From UHGV virus genome UHGV-0036148: DNA of 55,727 nucleotides; one strand, 5' to 3'. The stretch comes from a virus. The number at the start of each line of letters is the position of its first letter. Within the stretch, counting starts at the first letter, position 1. Positions 2,767 to 22,256 of the stretch are shown here, in pieces. The position numbers and the translations under genes are program-made. Below the pieces are notes generated by a model. It was not told where the DNA came from. It saw only the letters and a program-made list of their open reading frames with translations, and did no database searches.

Positions 2767-3168
2767 TCACCCCCACATATTAGTTTCGTATTCACCAATA
2801 TCCGGTAACAGGTCGCCGCGTTCGCGAACTTTAATAAACAATCGCCCGCCTTTTACCTTCCGGCAGCGAACAATTTTTATTGCGTCGATTTGTCCGTCAT
2901 CATTCCAGAACTCTGCATAAGTAAGACTATCAAAAAGGCATTTGGGGATATTATCTAGATCTCTGGTTCGGTTATCCGGCGGCGCGGCATGAATGGTAAT
3001 TGCCAGTCGGCAAGATAGGTTGATGTTTAAATTTAATAGCTCGATGATGTCTCTTACTTGCTCACGGTATTCTTTTCCAACCTTGCTGATATAGTGAAAA
3101 CCGCGTGAATGCCGATAATATCGGTTATTAGATGGCGGGTAAGGTAGGCTAAATGTATATTCATTCAT
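2767..3168 (-). CDS. rusA: Holliday junction resolvase RusA
   Basis: LPYPPSNNRYYRH ... RDLDN ... KGGRL motifs match the RusA family. Confidence 0.85.
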   Translation of the reverse strand: MNEYTFSLPYPPSNNRYYRHSRGFHYISKVGKEYREQVRDIIELLNLNINLSCRLAITIHAAPPDNRTRDLDNIPKCLFDSLTYAEFWNDDGQIDAIKIVRCRKVKGGRLFIKVRERGDLLPDIGEYETNMWG

Positions 3169-3770
3169 GCTGCCTTTCTCCTTAAGGCGTCTAATTTAGC
3201 CTGATAGACTTTTATGATTTCCTTACATTCTTCTATCGTCCATTTGTGAGTTTCGTTGTTGTTCTCCAGCGCCACCACCCTGGCGAGGCCAATTTTTCGA
3301 ATCAGTGCCGGGCGATACCCTCCGATGTTGCCGTCTAGTGTCTGGTTGCAGTGCCTGCATTGCTTGTGACAATTATCATCGTTGAAACGAAGATGTCCTG
3401 CGGCGGCTACCGTCCTGTAATGGCCTGCATCCCACCCGCATTGCTCACCGTAGTAAGTCCCGCATGATATGCACGGCAATCGCGAGTCACGCTCGCGTAT
3501 ATAAGCGTTAAAAACGTTTTGTGCCTGTTTAATCCAGTAGCTACGCGGATTTAACTGCTTCCGCTTCCGGCTGCGCTCTTCCCGCTGGCTATCACGGCGT
3601 CTCTTCCGCTCCATAGCCTTCATAGCCTTCTCACGGTCGCGGCATAGCTGATCAAACTTCAGCTCTTCCAGACATTCATCGCTGCACCATGTTTGATTGT
3701 GATATTTAGGCTCAAAAAAAACGCCGCAGCATTTGCAACGGCGTCTTATGGGTTTTTTAGGGTTCTGCAT
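3165..3770 (-). CDS. ninG: NinG/Rap-like recombination protein
   Basis: RRRCKCCG, PRSYWIKQAQ, LPCISCGT, DAGHYRT, LRFN, HKQC, HRWTIEECK parallel lambda NinG; ATG at 3770 with GGGGTGG SD. Confidence 0.75.
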   Translation of the reverse strand: MQNPKKPIRRRCKCCGVFFEPKYHNQTWCSDECLEELKFDQLCRDREKAMKAMERKRRRDSQREERSRKRKQLNPRSYWIKQAQNVFNAYIRERDSRLPCISCGTYYGEQCGWDAGHYRTVAAAGHLRFNDDNCHKQCRHCNQTLDGNIGGYRPALIRKIGLARVVALENNNETHKWTIEECKEIIKVYQAKLDALRRKAA

Positions 3771-3784
3771 AAAAACCACCCCGA

Positions 3785-3961
3785 TTATTTTTGATTCTCT
3801 GTTTCGTTCAGCCTTTCGGCGTGTCCGGCCCTTAGCCAATGTTCTAAGCATTCGTTGCACTCGTTACAGCCTCCTTTCTTCGTGCTGCATACATTGCACA
3901 TTGCACGCATGACGCTCTCTCGTTCATAGTCGTCATGCCATTGGTAATTATCAAAAGGCAT
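3785..3961 (-). CDS. small Cys-rich protein (putative zinc-binding)
   Basis: CNVCSTKKGGCNECNEC motif; ATG at 3961 with AAGGAG SD. Confidence 0.4.
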   Translation of the reverse strand: MPFDNYQWHDDYERESVMRAMCNVCSTKKGGCNECNECLEHWLRAGHAERLNETENQK

Positions 3962-4120: not shown

Positions 4121-4909
4121 TCAGTCCGGCAAAACGCGGTTGAGCGTAGTACGATTGATGGCCCTGTCGTTAGCCAGGAACACAGCACGGGCAAAGCCGC
4201 GCGGCGTTAGTGAGCGGATCATCTTAGTGCGTTTCGACTTTCCTCCCAACTTCGCGTGCTGCTTACTGTCTTCCCATTCGTCCGGCATTGGCACAGGCCG
4301 GAACAGCGGCTGTTTAAATCCGTTGCCGCACCAAATACAAGTTTTCTTCGTGTATGCGTCGCGGGCCGCTATGTATTCAGGGAAGGCAGGATGTTTGTCA
4401 TCTTCCGGCAGGTAGCCACCGTAAGCGCACGGGTTGAAAATAAAATCAGGTTTACGCCATAGCGTTGACAGTGCGCCCACCGGATTTTCCACCATCCACG
4501 GCACGTTATACATATTCGCCAGTTTTTCTACCAATTTTGCGTTATACGCCGCCTTTACCTGGAAAGCAGGATCTTTTTTTCGCTTATCAGCGAACCAGCG
4601 AGCACCAGACACAGCGAGATCGTCGCACGGCGGAAAGCCCAATATAATGTCAGGTGCTGGATAAGAAGATAATTCAGGCGAGAACATTGCCAGGAAATGG
4701 CTGTCAATCCACACGTTAACGTATTCAATATTCGGATGAATGATTTTAACGCCTTCATAATCGCCGTGATTTGCGCCGTCATAGTTGAAGCAATAGCACT
4801 TATATCCTGCTTCCGCCCAATCTTTAACGGCGTACCCGCTGCCGTCGTACAGCGACCACACAACCCAACTTCTAAGCCAATTATTTAACCAGTGTTTAGC
4901 CTTGCTCAT
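4121..4909 (-). CDS. putative DNA C5-cytosine methyltransferase-like protein
   Basis: LYDGSGY (motif I-like), GFPPCDD (PC motif IV-like), MVENPVG (ENV motif VI-like); short, no obvious target-recognition domain. Confidence 0.45.
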   Translation of the reverse strand: MSKAKHWLNNWLRSWVVWSLYDGSGYAVKDWAEAGYKCYCFNYDGANHGDYEGVKIIHPNIEYVNVWIDSHFLAMFSPELSSYPAPDIILGFPPCDDLAVSGARWFADKRKKDPAFQVKAAYNAKLVEKLANMYNVPWMVENPVGALSTLWRKPDFIFNPCAYGGYLPEDDKHPAFPEYIAARDAYTKKTCIWCGNGFKQPLFRPVPMPDEWEDSKQHAKLGGKSKRTKMIRSLTPRGFARAVFLANDRAINRTTLNRVLPD

Positions 4910-5451: not shown

Positions 5452-5887
5452 AACTCAAATCAAGCCGAGTTGAAATACAACCGCATTGAGGGTTAAGCAT
5501 TGAAGGGGGCAACCCCTTACAGCTTGTTATTGCTCCGTCATTTATTATTCCATCATTAATATTGGCGGCAGTGAACTGATTTTTCTTTAGCTCTTCATCG
5601 CGATCATTTAATATTTGCTCCGCTTTTAGTGCGCTGTAGCTGATTAAGTCAACCAAAGTATCAGTAGGGTCAGAACCATTAGCCAAAATGGCCTCTAAAC
5701 GCGCTTCCTTGAGGCAAATCATCAGATCCCATACATCAAGTGGTGTTAAGTTTGCGCCCTTCTTAGCGTTGTATATAGTGGCTATTTTTGGCGCTGATTT
5801 TTCCTCTTTTCTGTCGTAGCCGTTTTGTTTACCTCTTTGCTCTATTGTTTCCGCTGCAAGTCGTAATAAATCTGCTGCATTAGTCAT
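5390..5887 (-). CDS. hypothetical protein
   Basis: ORF between the two methyltransferase genes; start taken at internal ATG after Dam stop. Confidence 0.35.
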   Translation of the reverse strand: MTNAADLLRLAAETIEQRGKQNGYDRKEEKSAPKIATIYNAKKGANLTPLDVWDLMICLKEARLEAILANGSDPTDTLVDLISYSALKAEQILNDRDEELKKNQFTAANINDGIINDGAITSCKGLPPSMLNPQCGCISTRLDLSFDRSEAIRDKRYDPNEKGGN

Positions 5888-6419
5888 TATCTGCACCTCT
5901 TGCATATAGCTCTTTACGTGTTATCTGCGTGAAAATACATTCATGTCTGCACCGTGGATGCCAGATCAAAAACAAGCTCCCTTTGTTGTTTCCGCTCACT
6001 GGCTTACCAGTCGCAGCATTTATAAAAGCCAGCCGCCCGCGCGTGATTAATCGGCATTCGCTTGCCGTCTCAACGCCGTTCATAAACCAGCTAACAGAAA
6101 TGTCAGCGGGCAATAACATTACGCAACCGATGTGGTTTCGGCTGTGTTCAAGCGCCGCTTTATCAACGAATGGCCCCGGGTTCGAATATGGTGGATTCAT
6201 CCAGACATACTCACCAGGCATTGCCACCGCTCCCCACGGATAATGCAACGTGTCCATTTCTTCGGTTATATATCGCGGTATTAATGCGTTTGCTTCGTTT
6301 GCTGCCACATCTGCGACAAACTCGAACTCGCGATCCATTCCTCTAAAAACTGGTTTAGGTGTCTGCCACAGGTCTTTAATTTCCTTCGGCGTACTGCTGC
6401 CTCCAAAATCATTTTTCAT
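5880..6419 (-). CDS. phage DNA N6-adenine methyltransferase (Dam-like)
   Basis: LWQTP ... MNPPYS (NPPY catalytic motif) typical of phage Dam N6-MTases; ATG at 6419 with GGGTGG SD. Confidence 0.7.
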   Translation of the reverse strand: MKNDFGGSSTPKEIKDLWQTPKPVFRGMDREFEFVADVAANEANALIPRYITEEMDTLHYPWGAVAMPGEYVWMNPPYSNPGPFVDKAALEHSRNHIGCVMLLPADISVSWFMNGVETASECRLITRGRLAFINAATGKPVSGNNKGSLFLIWHPRCRHECIFTQITRKELYARGADND

Positions 6420-6431
6420 TATGACCACCCA

Positions 6432-10284: not shown

Positions 10285-10937
10285 TAACCGATCTCCCCGT
10301 TAAGCTCTTTTAAGCGAATGTCATAAACGTCTTTCGCTTTCTGTTGCTGTTCTGAATCTTTAGGCAGTAGTTTCCAGCACTTCCCGAAGATCTCGCGTAA
10401 CTTGTTAGCGTCCTGCGCTTTCGCTGCCGCATCACAGAAACGCGCTAACACCTCATCAGGATTTGGCGGCGCTTTCTGCTGCTGTGGTTTCTGATTAGGT
10501 TGTTGTTTTGGTGGGTTTTTCTGCTGGCGAGGCTGCTGCCCTGTCTGTTTAGCGTATGCGTCGCTATCTAAATCTTTCGCATCGTCAATACAGAACAAGC
10601 CATTCAAGCAATATTTGCGAGCATAAGAAGATGTCGCGCCAGTTAATTGACCAGCCGACATTCCTTTTTGTTCCTTCTCCTCGCGAGCGAAAGCAGTAGC
10701 CGTTATTTCGTCTTCTCCATCGCTCAATACCGCCGTAGCCTTAATGTAATAACGATCACCAATTAACACAACTTCATCATTAAGCGTTAATGTAATGCCT
10801 TCCAGTAAAGGCTTGACAGCCTCCAAAATATCCTCAGCCGACCTATAATTGTAACCCCCGTATGAGTTGCGCTGAGATTTTGGCGCCTTTAATTGTTGCT
10901 GTATTAGCCACAATTTTTTATATAAATCTTTCTTCAC
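10284..10937 (-). CDS. erf: Erf-family single-strand annealing protein
   Basis: N-terminal region resembles the Erf family (recalled); position beside ssb; GTG start at 10937. Confidence 0.6.
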   Translation of the reverse strand: MKKDLYKKLWLIQQQLKAPKSQRNSYGGYNYRSAEDILEAVKPLLEGITLTLNDEVVLIGDRYYIKATAVLSDGEDEITATAFAREEKEQKGMSAGQLTGATSSYARKYCLNGLFCIDDAKDLDSDAYAKQTGQQPRQQKNPPKQQPNQKPQQQKAPPNPDEVLARFCDAAAKAQDANKLREIFGKCWKLLPKDSEQQQKAKDVYDIRLKELNGEIG

Positions 10938-11379
10938 ATCGTTTCCCCTTTTTTAAAGGAAGAAGTACAGCGGCCTCATGAGTCCAGCCGCGACGCAATC
11001 TTGTATGTATAGTGTGCTCACATATACCGTATTTTTCAGAAAAATAATGTACCGTGTTTGTTTCCCCCTTCACTGTTAACATCATGGTTCTGCATGTATT
11101 GCGCATGTTTTCAGCGTGCGTAACCCATCGGCAATTATCAGGTGAATACCCCTTGTCGTTGTCAATCCTGTCTATTTCTAACCCTTCACGATAACCGTTA
11201 TTTAAAGCCCACTCGATAAACTTTGACGAATCATTCAACCATTCGTCACATATAGTTATATTTTTATCCTTATAGTGTTTATTTCGTGGATTCTTATCGC
11301 TTTCCCTGCATCTCGTTTTCATTCCCTTAAAAACGTCATAAAGTTTTGTATGCGTCATTCCATGTTTTGAATAACCCAT
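10918..11379 (-). CDS. HNH endonuclease
   Basis: IDRIDNDKGYSPDNCRWVTHAENMRN HNH-type motif; AAGGAGA SD. Confidence 0.6.
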   Translation of the reverse strand: MGYSKHGMTHTKLYDVFKGMKTRCRESDKNPRNKHYKDKNITICDEWLNDSSKFIEWALNNGYREGLEIDRIDNDKGYSPDNCRWVTHAENMRNTCRTMMLTVKGETNTVHYFSEKYGICEHTIHTRLRRGWTHEAAVLLPLKKGKRCEERFI

Positions 11380-13531: not shown

Positions 13532-14578
13532 ATGAAGTGGTTTAAGCATGATAGCGATGCGAACCGCGATGAAAAACTTCAAAACGTTTTATTAGATTAT
13601 GGCCTGGAAGGGTACGGGCTTTATTGGTATTGCCTCGAACTAATAACTTATGACGTAGATCAGCACAATCTGACTTTTGACCTACGACATGACGCGAGAA
13701 TCATTGCGCGAAACGTCGGATCGACTGAAAAACGTATAGAAGAAATGATGAAATACTTCATCGAAATTGGTTTGTTTGAATGTTCTCAAGGCCACATAAC
13801 TTGTTTAAAGTTATTGAAAAGGCTGGACCAATCAATGACTTCTAAAAGCGCTTACAGGGCCGCCATAAACACAGCGAAGGAGCAATTAAAATTAGAAAAG
13901 TTAATCAATCCAACACAAAAAGGTCATGATAGGGTCATGACCGGGTCAGGAAAGGGTCATGAATTAGAATTAGAAGAAGAAAGAGAAAAAGATATATACA
14001 CTTCGTGTATTGTCGAAAATGAACAAAAAATGGTCAATCAGGATGGCGTAAACGAAGCGGCGTTGCGTTGCCTGGCCTTCTACAACGACAAGGCAGGATG
14101 CAAATGTCGTGATGCGAAGCCATTCATCGAACTACTGACAGAAACAAAAACACGTAAAGCGTATACGGAGGATGAGATCACATTAGTGATTGAGTGGGCT
14201 TTAACGCAATGGCGTAGCCGTGGTGGAACACCTAAGCCTATCAATATTTGCCGGGTAACTAAATTTGATGGGTATCTGACTGATGCTGAACAATGGCGCA
14301 AACTGTCAGCCACCGCAAACGCTGCCGACGTGGTGGAAGCATTTAACAGCACGTTTGACAGCCTGTTACCACCTGTCGAACTGGATCGGGATCTTGAGCG
14401 CAAGATCTATGCGTTCACTGACTACCTGAAAGACAAAAGCATTAACGGCTTTGTCGCCTACTTCGAAACGTTCAAAAACACGGCTTCAGATTTTTACTTC
14501 GGCGATGGCTTCACAGCGACACTTGATTTTCTGCTTAAACCAAAAACGCTACGCGATACACGCGCAGGCGCTCTTTGA
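13532..14578 (+). CDS. replication initiator / replisome organizer
   Basis: N-terminus MKWFKHDSDANRDEKLQNVLLDYGLEGYGLYWYCLE resembles the phage replisome-organizer N-terminal domain; contains iterons. Confidence 0.6.
   Translation: MKWFKHDSDANRDEKLQNVLLDYGLEGYGLYWYCLELITYDVDQHNLTFDLRHDARIIARNVGSTEKRIEEMMKYFIEIGLFECSQGHITCLKLLKRLDQSMTSKSAYRAAINTAKEQLKLEKLINPTQKGHDRVMTGSGKGHELELEEEREKDIYTSCIVENEQKMVNQDGVNEAALRCLAFYNDKAGCKCRDAKPFIELLTETKTRKAYTEDEITLVIEWALTQWRSRGGTPKPINICRVTKFDGYLTDAEQWRKLSATANAADVVEAFNSTFDSLLPPVELDRDLERKIYAFTDYLKDKSINGFVAYFETFKNTASDFYFGDGFTATLDFLLKPKTLRDTRAGAL
13915..14010. other. candidate origin of replication (iterons + AT-rich tract) inside initiator gene
   Basis: four 11-bp-spaced copies of GGTCATGA/GGTCAGGA followed by AT-rich attagaattagaagaagaaagagaaaaagatatata. 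Confidence 0.5.
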
Positions 14579-14814: not shown

Positions 14815-14946
14815 CCTACCTACCAGTCTGTAAATCAAAAATTAGCCACCCGATAGCGCCTCTAGCGCAATAAGACACTGCAACCTGTGCAAACGGGTTA
14901 CGCGGTGGGATTTTTGCGTTGTAGAGCGTTTTACGGAGAAATTACA

Positions 14947-15684
14947 ATGTCTGAGTTGATGTGTTTTAATTTTGATGACAATAAAATCACTGCTGTAATT
15001 TATGACGGTAAACCTGCTTTTGTTGCGGTTGATGTGGCCCGTGCGCTGGGGTACAACGACGAGCATCAGGCCATTAAAAAACATTGTAAGTCATTGATTA
15101 AACTTGATTCCGTTAAAACAACGGAATTAGGTTTTGGGTTCAGACCAAAAGGCATAATTATAATTCGAGAGGCAGATATATACCGTCTTGTTATGAGATC
15201 AAAATTAGAATCAGCCGAGCGCTTCCAGGATTGGGTGTGCGAGGAGGTTCTTCCGGCTTTGCGTGAAAATGGGTGTTACGGTTGCAAACCTGCTTTGCCT
15301 GACTTCTCTAACCCTGCGGAAGCGGCGCGGGCGTGGGCTAATGAATACGAGCAAAAATTGTTAGTTAAGCAAGAAAATGAACGTCTTGCGCTTGAAAATA
15401 AAGTGCTGGCTCCGAAAGCGGCTGTATGTGACGCGATAGTCAAAAACGATATGCACCGAACGGCTTCAGAGGTAGCTAAACCGCTGGGAATGTCAGCCGT
15501 AAAATTAAACAGAAAACTTTCGGCGGTTGGTGTTTATGATCTTCGCTGTCGCCGCCGTGTATTCAGTCAGTGGTTTATTGATGAGGGCTACGGTGAAATG
15601 AGGGTAACTCACGATGGATATGAGCAGGCTGTATTCACTGCTAAAGGACAAGTATGGATCACTGAGCTTTTAACTTGCAACTAA
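14947..15684 (+). CDS. antirepressor (Bro-N + KilA-C/Ant domains)
   Basis: FNFDDNKITAVIYDGKPAFVAVDVARALGY Bro-N signature; C-terminal Ant-like region; GGAG SD. Confidence 0.75.
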   Translation: MSELMCFNFDDNKITAVIYDGKPAFVAVDVARALGYNDEHQAIKKHCKSLIKLDSVKTTELGFGFRPKGIIIIREADIYRLVMRSKLESAERFQDWVCEEVLPALRENGCYGCKPALPDFSNPAEAARAWANEYEQKLLVKQENERLALENKVLAPKAAVCDAIVKNDMHRTASEVAKPLGMSAVKLNRKLSAVGVYDLRCRRRVFSQWFIDEGYGEMRVTHDGYEQAVFTAKGQVWITELLTCN

Positions 15685-15718: not shown

Positions 15719-16837
15719 ATGTCACAAAGAAAAATCAGCGATGAGCAATTGATCGCTGAATATAACAACGGTTTAACGTACAAGCAGATCGCTGAAAAAT
15801 ATGGCATGTCAAAACGCAACGTCGAGCGGCTAGGCGCAAAACTGGCGAAACGCGGTTTAATATCCACGCGTCGCGCACCGGGTTTTGGCGTCAATGCTGA
15901 GTCATTGCTCGTCGATAAGGATGGCAATGTGATCATGCGCTGGATTAAAACAGCCCGTGACCGCGACGAAATGGAACAGTTAATGGAAGCGGCCCGCGAC
16001 GCTTTCACGGATGAAATACCACGCGCGGAGGCTGTGCCAGTGCCTGAAATTGATTTTCAAAAAAGCCTGGCCCTTTATCCGGTGTTTGATCTGCATATCG
16101 GGGCGCTTGCTCATAAAGCTGAATGCGGCGAGAGCTACGACACTGGGATCGCTGAGCGCGTGTTGAATGACTTCTTTGACTACGCTGTTGGCGCTGCTCC
16201 GATGTCTGAAAAAGCCGTACTGCTCCTCGGTGGCGATCTGCTTCATTCTGACGGTATGGTCCCGGTGACGCCAATAAGCGGGCACATTCTTGATCAAGAT
16301 AGTCGCTACGCAAAACTTGTTTATGTGGCGATCCGGTCTGTCCGGCGGGCGGTAGGTAAAATGTTGTTAAATCATAAGGATGTTGAAATCCAGGTGTTAT
16401 CAGGCAATCACGATCAGTCAGGCATGATTTGGCTACGTGCGGCGCTGGCGGCTTTTTACGAAGATGAACCGCGCGTGACGGTTGATGTGTCCCCTACTAT
16501 CGTCCACCACACACAGTACGGCAAAACATTCCTTGCTTACCACCACGGGCACACTATCAAAAAGCCGGAAAATTTATTGTCTGCTTGCGTAGCTGACTGG
16601 CGTGAGGATTTCGGCAAGTCTGCGGCGGTTTACGCTCATTGCGGGCACTGGCATCATCAACGGCTGATTGAATCATCGTTAGGCGTTGTTGAGTATCACG
16701 GCACATTAGCGGGTAAAGACGCTTATTCAACGAATGGCGGTTGGCGGTCGCGGCGTCTGGCGGCGGTGATTATTTACAGCCCGGATCATGGGGAAATTGG
16801 GCGCTTTGTTTATTACCCTGAATATTCCATTTTGTAA
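15719..16837 (+). CDS. HTH domain fused to calcineurin-like metallophosphoesterase
   Basis: N-terminal HTH (LTYKQIAEKYGMSKRNVERL); phosphoesterase motifs DLHIG, GGDLLH, GNHD, HHGH, GHWHH. Confidence 0.6.
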   Translation: MSQRKISDEQLIAEYNNGLTYKQIAEKYGMSKRNVERLGAKLAKRGLISTRRAPGFGVNAESLLVDKDGNVIMRWIKTARDRDEMEQLMEAARDAFTDEIPRAEAVPVPEIDFQKSLALYPVFDLHIGALAHKAECGESYDTGIAERVLNDFFDYAVGAAPMSEKAVLLLGGDLLHSDGMVPVTPISGHILDQDSRYAKLVYVAIRSVRRAVGKMLLNHKDVEIQVLSGNHDQSGMIWLRAALAAFYEDEPRVTVDVSPTIVHHTQYGKTFLAYHHGHTIKKPENLLSACVADWREDFGKSAAVYAHCGHWHHQRLIESSLGVVEYHGTLAGKDAYSTNGGWRSRRLAAVIIYSPDHGEIGRFVYYPEYSIL

Positions 16838-16855
16838 ACCGGAGGCAATAACATA

Positions 16856-18271
16856 ATGGTAACTGAGCAAATAAACTCACTACGGCAGGAACGTGAAGCG
16901 TCAGTTATCGGCGGGCTACTGTTAGGTGGCCTTACTCCTAACGCGCAAGATGTTCTCGCCACACTTGATCCTGAAGTGTTCACGATCCCGCTTTATAAAC
17001 GTGCGTTTGAAGTTATCCGGGCGCAAGCCAGAAACAGGAATCTTATCGACGCGTTATTAGTTGGCGATGAGATTGGCAATGAAAACTTTGTACCGCTAAT
17101 GCAAACGGCGCGATCGTGTCCTTCTGCTGCCAACCTGAAGGGATACGCACAGCTACTACGTGAAGAGCACCAGCGGCGGCAGATGCTGGAACTCATCGAC
17201 GATATGCGCTACAAGCTGGAAACGGGGACGCTTGAAGTCGTCAAAGAGACGATGAAAGATTTTGATTCCCGGTACTCAAAATTAAAGGTAACGAAAGACA
17301 AGATTATTCCGGTTCTGTTGCGCGATGCGGTACAGGAATACACGGAGGTGTTAAGCAAACGCATGGAATGCGGTGTCAATTCTGACAACATCAAAACAGG
17401 GATAGAACCACTCGACGAAATGTTAGGCGGAATTAACGCTACTGATTTGGTACTTCTCGCCGGACGTCCTGGGTCTGGTAAATCTGCGTTGGCGCTTGCA
17501 ATTGCTCGCGAGGCTGCCGAGCGCCCTTACCCTGGTGGCGAAGGTCAGCGGGTAGGCGTTTTGCTGTTTACGCTTGAAATGTCACTCGATCAGATGACTG
17601 AACGGGCCATTGCTGGCGCTGGTAATTTATCAACTGACTGCCTGCGCAATCCGGTAAAACTTGATGATGAGGGTTGGGCGCATGTCGGCCAGGGTATGAG
17701 CGCACTTGCTAATCTTGAGGTGTGGATCGTTGACGCGTCGCAGTTAACGGTTGAGGAAATACGCGCAACAACGGAACGCATGAAGCAGGATCACCCAAAC
17801 TTGGGCATGGTAATGATTGACTACATCGGTTTAATGAAGCTGGCTAAAGCCGAACGTCACGATCTCGCTGTAGGGCAATTGTCATGGTCGTTGAAGATGA
17901 TGGCGAAAGAATTGCGCGTACCAGTGTTGGCGCTGGCCCAGTTATCCCGCCGCGTTGAGGAACGACCTAACAAGCGCCCTAATAATTCAGATCTTCGAGA
18001 TTCAGGGAACCTTGAGCAAGACGCTGACAGGATCATCATGGTTTACCGCGATGGTTATTACGATGAGCAGTCTGTAGCACGCGAATACATGGAAATAATT
18101 GTATCTAAAAACCGTCACGGGAAAACTGGTACTGTTTACCAGCGGTTTGATGACAACGGCAATATCCTCCCTTGTGACCAGGCCCGCGCAGCGTCTGCAT
18201 GTATTCAGTCTATGAATCATCGTACAAGCAGATTTAACCAACGAAACAACCAGAATAACGCATCCTTTTAA
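16856..18271 (+). CDS. dnaB: DnaB-family replicative helicase
   Basis: Walker A GRPGSGKS, Walker B MVMIDYIGLM, DnaB-like N-terminal domain. Confidence 0.85.
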   Translation: MVTEQINSLRQEREASVIGGLLLGGLTPNAQDVLATLDPEVFTIPLYKRAFEVIRAQARNRNLIDALLVGDEIGNENFVPLMQTARSCPSAANLKGYAQLLREEHQRRQMLELIDDMRYKLETGTLEVVKETMKDFDSRYSKLKVTKDKIIPVLLRDAVQEYTEVLSKRMECGVNSDNIKTGIEPLDEMLGGINATDLVLLAGRPGSGKSALALAIAREAAERPYPGGEGQRVGVLLFTLEMSLDQMTERAIAGAGNLSTDCLRNPVKLDDEGWAHVGQGMSALANLEVWIVDASQLTVEEIRATTERMKQDHPNLGMVMIDYIGLMKLAKAERHDLAVGQLSWSLKMMAKELRVPVLALAQLSRRVEERPNKRPNNSDLRDSGNLEQDADRIIMVYRDGYYDEQSVAREYMEIIVSKNRHGKTGTVYQRFDDNGNILPCDQARAASACIQSMNHRTSRFNQRNNQNNASF

Positions 18272-18347
18272 TCAATATGAGCAAACGGCTTACCAGAAAG
18301 TTTACCGCTTTCTGGTGGCTGTTATCGCGTTTAAAGCGAGGCTGAAA

Positions 18348-18857
18348 ATGAAAACTTCATACCAACAACAAATAATTGATTTTTTAAATGACGCTGTTAT
18401 TTCAGGTGAGGGAACGATAGTTAAATCTATTCCTGGACCGGAAGGTGAAATAATTTGCGCTTTGGATGCTTTGGTTTCTGATGGCGTTATTATAAAAGTA
18501 GATCTAAATAGTAAAAGATTATCATATTGCTTGAAGTCAGTAAGGGAAATGGCGATAAGGGATATAATCCCTTTGTTTTCAAATAGTAGCGGGTATTTTT
18601 CAGCGGAAGATGTTAAGAATGAATTGAATATTAATATAAACAAAGGAAAGGTCGGCAGAATATTGCGGATGTTAGGAAGTGAGAATCTATTAACCGTTAA
18701 TAAGTTTGACGGTAAATATTTTTTCAGAAACGCGCGTTTTTATGGTTATTCAAATGTTGTCGCATTTAATTTTAGTAACTTATTAAACGAATACCGTAAA
18801 GATAACGGCCTACTGCCTGATAAACCAGTATTTGAGATTGAAAAACTTAACGGTTAA
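18348..18857 (+). CDS. hypothetical protein, AT-rich gene
   Basis: ORF with visibly lower GC than neighbours; GAGG SD; no motif. Confidence 0.4.
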   Translation: MKTSYQQQIIDFLNDAVISGEGTIVKSIPGPEGEIICALDALVSDGVIIKVDLNSKRLSYCLKSVREMAIRDIIPLFSNSSGYFSAEDVKNELNININKGKVGRILRMLGSENLLTVNKFDGKYFFRNARFYGYSNVVAFNFSNLLNEYRKDNGLLPDKPVFEIEKLNG

Positions 18858-20568: not shown

Positions 20569-20786
20569 TGGATAAGATCGGCACAATTCTTATTAATCGT
20601 GAACAAGTGCAAAAAATGTTAGGCGGGCTTAGTAAGTCAGCATTTTTTAAACTGGTTAAAAAATGGAAGGATTCAGGTACTCCATTCCCTGAACCCGTTA
20701 AGGGGATGCCAGCGTTAAAGCGCGGCGGATATCTTTACCGTTATCAGGATGTTATTTCATTTTGTAAGTCAATGGGTTTCATGTAA
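20568..20786 (+). CDS. AlpA/excisionase-family small DNA-binding protein
   Basis: INREQVQKMLGGLSKSAFFKLVKK...PFPEPVKG pattern resembles AlpA/Vis-type HTH; convergent with integrase. Confidence 0.5.
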   Translation: MDKIGTILINREQVQKMLGGLSKSAFFKLVKKWKDSGTPFPEPVKGMPALKRGGYLYRYQDVISFCKSMGFM

Positions 20787-21958
20787 TAATCAGCCAGCTT
20801 ATTCATCGCCTCTATTTGTTCCCTCACATAGTCATACTGATCGTATATAGCAAACATCCCAGCCAGCTTATGCCCCAAAACCTTTTCCGCAACGTGAGGC
20901 GCAACGCCAAGCGCTGAAAGGTTTGTTCTCACGGTGCGGCGTAGATCGTGACACGACCACGACTCGCCGCCCATCCTTATCATTAAATCCCTCGCTGCTG
21001 TTTTCGGTACACTTCTGTCCACTGCTTCATCCCTTCCAGAAAGCACAGGAACGAAGACAAAATCAAAGCTATGCAGATCCATAGCCTCGCGCAATAAAGC
21101 TACGCTAACGTCTGATAAACCGCGTTTAAACTCGTTCCTGTTCTTACTCAATGCACCTGGCACCGTCCACACACAGCTATCAAGATCGAAATGCTCGCGC
21201 CTTGCGTTTGTCAGTTCGCTTGTTCTACATCCGGTGAGTATAATCAGCTTCATCAATATCTGGTTCAGCCGCGCCATTTTTGAACTGTCTATAAGGCTGA
21301 TTAGATGGTGAATCTCTTGTATTGACAAAACGCGTTTCCTTTGCGCCGGGTTTTTGCCTACATCTTTCACACGTAGCAATGATATGTCGTCACGATCCAC
21401 GCGGCGGCGGCGCATGGCGTACTTTATTACCGCCTTCATTCTGTTGAGAACTATCCCTGCCTGAACTGGTGCGCCACCACTGGCTACCTTTCTAAAAACC
21501 CCCTCCCACATCATAGCGTCCATATCATCGACTATATAGCTACCGTATGGTTTTATGACGTGCTTATCTAGCATGCCCTCAACCTGCTTATAATTGACCA
21601 TGTTCCTTGCCTGCGGCGATTCCATGTACTCCCTTACAATATCCTCAACCGTTGCCCGTGTCGTAACGCGGGAAAGGTGCATTCTTTTTGCTACCGATGG
21701 ATCTCGACCTGAGTTTAGCACTTCCTTATGCTCCGCCACCGCCGCCCGCGCTTCCTTGAGTGTTATTTCTCCGTATGTTCCTATCTTCATCCGTCGAGGC
21801 TTGCCGTTGAATCGGTAGCGATACTGGAAGGATATAACTCCTCGCGGGCTTATCCTGGCAGACAATCCGCCAGCGTCCGGTACTTCTTTCGGGCCGTCGT
21901 ATGGCTTGCCGTGGATGTTTCGTAATTTGGTATCTGTAAGCATAATTTTGGTCACCAT
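20744..21958 (-). CDS. int: tyrosine integrase
   Basis: C-terminal catalytic region HDLRRT...LGH...Y; ATG at 21958 (longer upstream-extended frame exists). Confidence 0.85.
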   Translation of the reverse strand: MVTKIMLTDTKLRNIHGKPYDGPKEVPDAGGLSARISPRGVISFQYRYRFNGKPRRMKIGTYGEITLKEARAAVAEHKEVLNSGRDPSVAKRMHLSRVTTRATVEDIVREYMESPQARNMVNYKQVEGMLDKHVIKPYGSYIVDDMDAMMWEGVFRKVASGGAPVQAGIVLNRMKAVIKYAMRRRRVDRDDISLLRVKDVGKNPAQRKRVLSIQEIHHLISLIDSSKMARLNQILMKLIILTGCRTSELTNARREHFDLDSCVWTVPGALSKNRNEFKRGLSDVSVALLREAMDLHSFDFVFVPVLSGRDEAVDRSVPKTAARDLMIRMGGESWSCHDLRRTVRTNLSALGVAPHVAEKVLGHKLAGMFAIYDQYDYVREQIEAMNKLADYYMKPIDLQNEITS

Positions 21959-22256
21959 TTGGTACACACATTTTACGCATGGATAGTACCACGATAGAAA
22001 ACGATATGACACGATAGAATAAATATTTCTTTTAAAATCAAGGTGAAGAGGTAACGATGTGACACGATGTGAAATGATAGAAATGGCACTATCCATTTAT
22101 CTTTTGAATGGGTGGACTAACGAAAAACTGATTTATATTCAACATCTTATGCTTTGTTTTTGCTTTTAATTTATCGATTTGGTCACAATTTGGTACACAA
22201 AAAGAAACGAGGCGTTAGCCTCGTTTCGCGCGGCGATGTTCTTCGCACATCACCTC
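21944..22256. other. attP-like region with direct repeats and clustered short repeats
   Basis: 22-bp direct repeat TTTGGTCAC(C/A)ATTTGGTACACA at 21947 and 22188; multiple ACGATAG/GACACGAT repeats between. Confidence 0.4.
22214..22238 (-). terminator. rho-independent terminator downstream of tail fibre gene
   Basis: minus strand AAACGAGGC-taac-GCCTCGTTT followed by CTTTTTG. Confidence 0.5.

Follow-up and report, generated by a model that had tools for sequence, protein, structure and literature searches.

What does a phosphoesterase fused to a DNA-binding domain do between a replication initiator and a replicative helicase? This question is raised by the virus genome UHGV-0036148, analyzed here as one stretch of 55,727 nt (the window), in which a 372-aa open reading frame (ORF; 15719-16837, + strand) lies directly upstream of a gene encoding a DnaB-family helicase. 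Its product joins an N-terminal helix-turn-helix (HTH) to a calcineurin-like metallophosphoesterase (MPE) and is referred to below as HTH-MPE. An earlier interpretation made from the nucleotide sequence (the sequence-only reading) had assumed that this slot is normally held by a helicase loader. Our analysis showed that HTH-MPE is an ordinary member of a catalogued but unstudied phage family, PHROG 704. We give an even chance to the reading that it acts as an autonomous, DNA-targeted nuclease or end-processing phosphodiesterase.

The ORF is preceded by a GAGGA ribosome-binding site 9 nt 5' of its start, and 18 nt separate its stop from the helicase ORF (16856-18271). The protein matched the profile phrog_704 ("DNA repair exonuclease") with E=4.3e-140, residues 4-368 aligning with positions 2-387 of the 390 profile positions, and phrog_284 ("exonuclease") was also matched in the PHROGs search (2.6e-17). 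It is 97% identical to hypothetical protein mEp013_11.

The MPE domain (residues 114-368; 16058-16822, +) contains all five motifs of the superfamily (DxH, GDxx[DH], GNH[DE], H and GHxH). They are, all on the + strand, DLHIG (motif I, residues 124-128; 16088-16102), GGDLLH (motif II, residues 171-176; 16229-16246), GNHD (motif III, residues 229-232; 16403-16414), HHGH (motif IV, residues 275-278; 16541-16552) and GHWHH (motif V, residues 309-313; 16643-16657). Conservation was analyzed in two alignments, one of seven sequences at 28-65% identity and one of 68 sequences down to 21% identity, and it peaked at the metal-ligand motifs in both. Among the 68 members the sole invariant columns were D124 and H126 (motif I), G172 and D173 (motif II), N230 and H231 (motif III), H276 (motif IV) and H312 (motif V), while H176 of motif II and G309 and H310 of motif V were conserved in at least 90%. 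Since all eight invariant columns fall within the motifs, the motif strings are not chance matches. The model calculated with AlphaFold2 (AF2) displayed the beta-alpha-beta-alpha-beta sandwich that characterizes the superfamily. Profile searches with HTH-MPE itself gave no match to Pfam Metallophos at E≤0.1 and no MPE match in NCBIfam, whereas in its relatives, scanned singly, Metallophos matched 15 of the 68 (best 2.7e-5) and Metallophos_2 matched 10 (best 4.7e-7). A PDB sequence search with the single protein returned nothing relevant, and a BFVD fold search returned uncharacterised homologues only.

The domain also contains a conserved loop specific to the family, TPISGHILDQDSRYAK (residues 184-199; 16268-16315, +), with the pattern TPxSGHxLDxDxRxxK, in which T184, L191, D192, D194 and R196 were conserved in at least 90% of the members. 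The AF2 confidence was low here, with a predicted local distance difference test score (pLDDT) <50 for residues 179-192. This loop is a candidate substrate-binding element.

The N-terminal domain (residues 8-45; 15740-15853, +) was modeled as three helices (8-16, 21-28 and 32-45), followed by a linker composed of a beta-hairpin and a long helix (residues 56-99; 15884-16015, +). Two conserved residues mark the linker: W75, invariant in the 7-sequence alignment, and G69, almost invariant in the 68-sequence alignment. Residues 10-58 of HTH-MPE gave weak, sub-threshold HTH matches in Pfam and NCBIfam. The N-termini of relatives gave strong ones in Pfam (Sigma70_r4_2, 1.5e-9; GerE, 2.4e-8; GcrA, 2e-8), and further HTH types, namely Fis-type HTH_8 and HTH_23/28, were found at the same position. 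When the N-terminal model was compared with known structures, the matches were restricted to DNA-binding domains. The three-helix bundle with its recognition helix and the profile matches are those of a tri-helical HTH resembling LuxR-GerE or sigma-70 region 4. The HTH is kept throughout the family, although its class varies.

The sequence-only reading had described a 372-aa ORF directly upstream of DnaB, an N-terminal HTH and a complete calcineurin-like motif set, and each of these was borne out. It had also proposed a Pfam Metallophos search and a structure prediction as checks. The former succeeded with some of the relatives and failed with the window protein, and the latter recovered the MPE fold. 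Its own objection that the motifs might be coincidental fails in view of the conservation across 68 homologues and the strength of the phrog_704 match.

The family is large. An exhaustive HMMER scan against 1.84 billion representatives detected 4364 clusters at E≤1e-3, of which 918 reached E≤1e-30 (counted at 50% identity), most of them with proteins of 370-440 aa. A second homology search with a diverse alignment recovered the same close relatives and no added diversity. Homologues were found in 2043 of 50,697 phage records, or ~4% of sequenced phage genomes. They are mostly annotated as "DNA repair exonuclease" or "putative phosphoesterase", and labels such as "DNA polymerase II small subunit", "oxidoreductase" and "Rrf2 family regulator" also occur; every one of these names is inferred. 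The window region is 92-97% identical to Escherichia coli prophages and to phages mEp013, mEp010 and mEp021, which form the "mEpimmI" group of Nus-dependent non-lambdoid coliphages (PMC11893012). The HTH-MPE gene is not discussed in that paper.

The gene is under strong purifying selection. Among 37 mEpimmI alleles the ratio of nonsynonymous to synonymous substitution rates (dN/dS) was 0.069, compared with 0.073 for DnaB. Judged from these alleles, HTH-MPE is a working gene that matters to the phage. Three of the 43 related loci (L032, L044 and L048) carry an HNH-AP2 homing endonuclease gene between HTH-MPE and DnaB (region 9016-9624 of L032, corresponding to 16837-16856 of the window), which widens the gap from 18 to 525-527 nt. 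In these three loci the 3' end of HTH-MPE, including motif V, is swapped for a version that has diverged but is intact, suggestive of a co-conversion tract. The window itself contains an ORF (10918-11379, -) that resembles an HNH/AP2-type homing endonuclease by its sequence motifs and adjoins the Erf and SSB genes of the leftward operon.

The significance of the slot upstream of the helicase depends on the type of replication module. The helicase (16856-18271, +; DnaB_C, 1.1e-75; DnaB N-terminal domain, 5.3e-12) is of the P22 gp12 type and 57% identical to gp12. The replication initiator (13532-14578, +) combines a Lin1244_N domain (6.8e-11) with a gp18-like C-terminal domain and matched replication-initiation PHROGs. 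Its last ~85 residues show homology to the C-terminal end of P22/ST104 gp18 (E=1e-11), and the initiator of Stenotrophomonas phage BUCT708 shares 47% identity with residues 162-348 (E=1e-61). Within the initiator gene, a repeat search detected an iteron-like array of four GGTCAtGA units with 11-bp spacing (13922-13962), flanked by the AT-rich direct repeats AATTAAAATTAGAA and AATTAGAATTAGAA; the whole repeat region extends from 13884 to 13975. Judged by these repeats, the array is probably the replication origin, in which case its location within the initiator gene would match that in lambda O and P22 18. An origin inside the HTH-MPE gene was also considered and was rejected, as the sole iteron array of the region sits in the initiator gene.

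The module thus resembles P22 genes 18 and 12 in its gp12-type helicase, in the gp18-like C-terminus of its initiator and in the iterons inside the initiator gene. It differs in spacing. The helicase gene of P22-like phages and of BUCT708 begins within the initiator gene and nothing lies between them, whereas in the window ~2.3 kb, occupied by an anti-repressor (Ant)-like gene and HTH-MPE, separates the two. The assumption that a helicase loader normally holds this slot is therefore wrong for a P22-like module. The Ant-like gene (14887-15684, +; Bro-N, 1e-21; ANT, 9.7e-11) occupies a variable position between initiator and HTH-MPE, where relatives have another gene, an Ant of 26-87% identity or no gene at all.

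In lambdoid phages the helicase, or its loader, is brought in by the C-terminal domain of O-type initiators, and P22 gp12 is not known to need a loader protein encoded by the phage. The simplest reading by analogy is that initiator and gp12-type helicase interact directly in the window phage, the helicase most likely being recruited at the iterons by the gp18-like C-terminal domain, as in P22. If the two are directly coupled, the Ant-like gene and HTH-MPE would be insertions between them. On this comparison of modules, the apparent puzzle of a missing loader dissolves once the module is recognized as P22-like.

The genomic context of the family was compared in 253 loci, one of them a 14-kb sub-locus of the window; a clear homologue was present in 245. 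These homologues were grouped into 28 lineages by single-linkage clustering at 70% identity, and flanks of 6-8 kb were inspected. An Aeromonas-homologue scan added just three loci, and a scan of genome contigs returned two. A DnaB-family gene was present in the flanks of two of the 28 lineages and adjacent in one, mEpimmI, where all 43 loci showed the adjacency; in the sole other locus with DnaB it lies 3.5 kb away. The conserved linkage to DnaB across lineages that would mark a helicase loader was not found. The nearest homologues outside mEpimmI (59-72% identity, and 65-72% for the closest) belong to virulent T1-like phages, in which no DnaB-family gene lies within 8 kb of the homologue. There the homologue ends an operon of superfamily 2 (SF2) helicase, VRR-NUC nuclease and Dam-like methylase genes, and holin, endolysin and spanin genes directly follow.

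In other phages the homologue occupies still different positions. It lies between tail genes and an Ant gene in phage Jersey, between lysis and head genes and followed by an HNH endonuclease gene in Vibrio phage 98E28-3, and after the lysis genes in Sulfitobacter and Microcystis phages. Klebsiella phage JD001 carries it at the end of a primase operon before the terminase gene, Streptococcus thermophilus phage D4446 behind a primase gene, a helicase gene and six small ones, and Lactobacillus phage LJ after ArpU and before HNH and terminase genes. Recurring neighbours were endolysin in nine lineages and a holin-like protein in five. HNH-AP2 homing endonuclease genes stood directly beside the homologue in at least six lineages, downstream of it in five. 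No conserved partner protein was found across the 28 lineages.

These results bear directly on the idea that HTH-MPE is a helicase loader or replication-initiation factor, taking over from a lambda P- or DnaC-type loader by bridging initiator and helicase or by remodeling the origin. We regard it as very unlikely. HTH-MPE does lie between initiator and DnaB with the 18-nt gap in 40 of the 43 related loci, and it is under purifying selection as strong as that on DnaB. Profile searches also found no AAA+ loader among the ORFs of at least 200 aa in the early regions, so that the absence noted in the sequence-only reading holds for these ORFs. However, the adjacency to DnaB is limited to a single close lineage (88-98% identity) and represents one evolutionary event, the nearest outgroup homologues, in T1-like phages, have no DnaB-family gene within 8 kb, and the homologous initiator-helicase pairs of P22-like phages and BUCT708 overlap without an HTH-MPE. 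The homing endonuclease insertions between HTH-MPE and DnaB are, moreover, tolerated. The protein itself argues in the same direction. It gave no AAA or IstB match in Pfam, NCBIfam or PHROG, it has no P-loop and lacks the Walker A and B motifs of DnaC/DnaI/IstB-like loaders, and its fold is that of an MPE. It showed no fold or sequence similarity to the non-AAA+ loaders lambda P, DciA, SPP1 G39P and T4 gp59. The objection that HTH-MPE might prove to have a known loader fold fails as well, as neither the full model nor that of the N-terminal domain resembled one. The sequence-only reading had proposed a nuclease or phosphatase acting in replication initiation; the enzyme is plausible, but the role in initiation found no support in the comparison of genomes, with DnaB adjacent in one of 28 lineages.

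According to the favoured reading, HTH-MPE would be a catalytically competent binuclear-metal phosphoesterase tethered to an HTH DNA-binding domain. Its activity would most likely be that of a Mn2+/Mg2+-dependent phosphodiesterase, either a nuclease or an enzyme processing DNA ends. The HTH would bring the enzyme to DNA, which the MPE domain would cut or trim, and the targets could be phage replication or recombination intermediates, or host or competing DNA. It would be transcribed from the early rightward operon with the replication genes, yet would not load the helicase.

Four observations point to nucleic acid as the target. An HTH persists through changes of its class. Homologues often share operons with helicases, primases, nucleases and methylases, as illustrated by initiator and DnaB in the window, by SF2 helicase, VRR-NUC and methylase in T1-like phages and by primase in JD001 and D4446. 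Within the PDB, the family profile reached no MPE sequences other than SbcD/Mre11 (Thermotoga SbcD/Mre11, E=0.008-0.03, over motifs I-II only). Motif II has the GDxxH form, which is also that of Mre11. The autonomy of the enzyme is suggested by the lack of a conserved partner gene.

Several points weigh against this reading. No experimental study of any PHROG 704 member, biochemical or genetic, was found in the literature. Comparisons of the family profile with E. coli SbcD, CpdA, YfcE and lambda NinI by hhalign were all insignificant, and an assignment to a subfamily by sequence accordingly failed. No Rad50/SbcC-like partner was detected in the early regions of the window or among the recurrent neighbours of the 28 lineages, and the C-terminal capping domain of Mre11 is not evident in HTH-MPE. 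In at least nine lineages the homologue lies beside lysis genes and not DNA-metabolism genes. Furthermore, a T1-like homologue, gp38 of Pantoea phage AAS23, was detected in purified virions by liquid chromatography-tandem mass spectrometry (PMC8004638). No current model explains this presence in the virion.

A bolder form of the nuclease reading is that the family is a hitherto unrecognised Mre11-like nuclease, targeted to DNA and independent of a partner, that serves phage DNA transactions in general, the mEpimmI copy perhaps being coupled both physically and functionally to the gp12-type helicase. Such an enzyme might, for example, create or trim the ends that start recombination-dependent or rolling-circle replication. 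We consider this rather a long shot.

Other functions have been weighed against the DNA-targeted enzyme. It is unlikely that HTH-MPE is a small-molecule phosphodiesterase that degrades cyclic or linear signalling nucleotides during host takeover or to counter nucleotide-based defence, with the HTH serving autoregulation or localisation. A DNA-binding domain present throughout the family despite changes of class would be hard to explain in such an enzyme, the hhalign comparisons with CpdA and YfcE were insignificant, and no similarity to PADLOC or anti-defence families was found, PADLOC giving just HTH noise. A role in regulating the transcription of middle or late genes, in which the phosphoesterase domain would serve as effector or sensor, seems quite unlikely. 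It would agree with the sigma-70 region 4, LuxR-GerE and GcrA-type HTHs of the relatives and with the place of the homologue directly upstream of holin and endolysin genes in T1-like and related lineages, the position of Q in lambdoid phages. However, alphaproteobacterial phages have the homologue downstream of the lysis genes, and catalytic residues that are all strictly conserved speak for an enzyme. A late regulator was rejected for the window phage, which already has its own Q-like antiterminator (1859-2581, -) at the end of the leftward operon.

The neighbours of the AAS23 homologue are genes for a 3'-phosphatase/5'-polynucleotide kinase and a deoxynucleoside monophosphate kinase (PMC8004638), and one Klebsiella phage has a HAD hydrolase gene beside the homologue. 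Such neighbours would suit a nucleic-acid end-healing enzyme comparable to the MPE domain of bacterial Pnkp, a 2',3'-cyclic phosphodiesterase or 3'-phosphatase that, together with polynucleotide kinase, mends tRNA or DNA after damage by host nucleases. This is distinctly improbable, because the early regions of the window encode no Pnk or ligase and the Pnk neighbour does not recur across lineages. Highly improbable, finally, is a protein Ser/Thr phosphatase analogous to lambda NinI. Both belong to the same superfamily, and in lambda the gene of the MPE phosphatase belongs to the nin region, close to Q and the lysis genes, but HTH-MPE has neither the GDxVDRG and GNHE motifs of PPP phosphatases nor its closest fold among them.

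For the window itself the gene matters little, since it is a typical member of a family already present in phage databases. The family is worth an experiment for its presence in ~4% of phage genomes, the strong purifying selection and the frequent homing endonuclease neighbour. The name "DNA repair exonuclease" is inferred, and no published assay supporting it was found; once the substrate is defined, thousands of annotations would be either corrected or confirmed. A nuclease or phosphodiesterase function that works alone and is shared by T1-like, Jersey-like, lambdoid-like and marine phages could also come to light.

The rightward early operon of the window is arranged as MarR-like HTH, Lin1244_N initiator, Bro-N/KilAC Ant-like gene, HTH-MPE, DnaB, small ORFs, NinB and a convergent integrase. 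The initiator is a mosaic whose N-terminal Lin1244_N domain is common to Vibrio and Pseudoalteromonas phages. The small MarR-like HTH ORF that precedes it (13196/13274-13528) matched the N-termini of replication-initiator PHROGs. The 180-aa ORF after DnaB (18315-18857, +) exists in two allelic forms in relatives (~99% or ~34% identity) and gave just weak MarR-like or dimerisation-domain matches. The integrase gene (20744-22105) converges on the end of the operon, and similarity to E. coli prophages ends at ~22105, where attP or the end of the prophage probably lies. The prophage of E. coli strain 127 adjoins an abgT fragment and ogt.

The leftward operon contains two DNA methyltransferase genes (4121-4909, -, and 5880-6428, -; phrog_757 and phrog_111) and is closed by RusA and NinG (2767-3168, -, and 3165-3860, -) beside the Q-like antiterminator. 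The late genes occupy the minus strand and run from ~54 kb to 22 kb. Their transcription appears to continue out of the left operon across the ends of the window, unlike the layout of lambda.

The HTH-MPE model was closest in fold to MJ0936 (12.5), SbcD (12.2) and Mre11 (12.2), followed by the polymerase delta B-subunit (11.9), PolD DP1 (11.5), LpxH (11.4) and the PPP protein phosphatases (~7). Compared with Mre11/SbcD, HTH-MPE has no Rad50/SbcC partner and no evident capping domain, and the sequence signal is marginal (1.9% probability by hhalign for the family profile against E. coli SbcD). The MJ0936/YfcE-type enzymes are single-domain proteins of ~165-185 aa without a DNA-binding domain or the TPxSGHxLDxDxR loop, and the comparison with YfcE gave E=0.0025 at 12% probability. 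The eukaryotic B-subunits of polymerases delta, alpha and epsilon have lost their catalytic residues, whereas the HTH-MPE family keeps them. As a further difference from these subunits and from archaeal PolD DP1, no DNA polymerase gene was found among the scanned ORFs of the window, the annotated regions or the conserved neighbours of the T1-like homologues. The closest likeness is to the other proteins of PHROG 704, to which the "putative phosphoesterase" of T1-like, Jersey-like and Dhillonvirus phages belongs just as the window protein does. They share the HTH and MPE architecture and the protein length, at 97% identity for mEp013, 59-72% for T1-like phages (Drexlerviridae) and 44% for Jersey. 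From these other members the window HTH-MPE differs in genomic position alone, lying here in the slot between initiator and DnaB.

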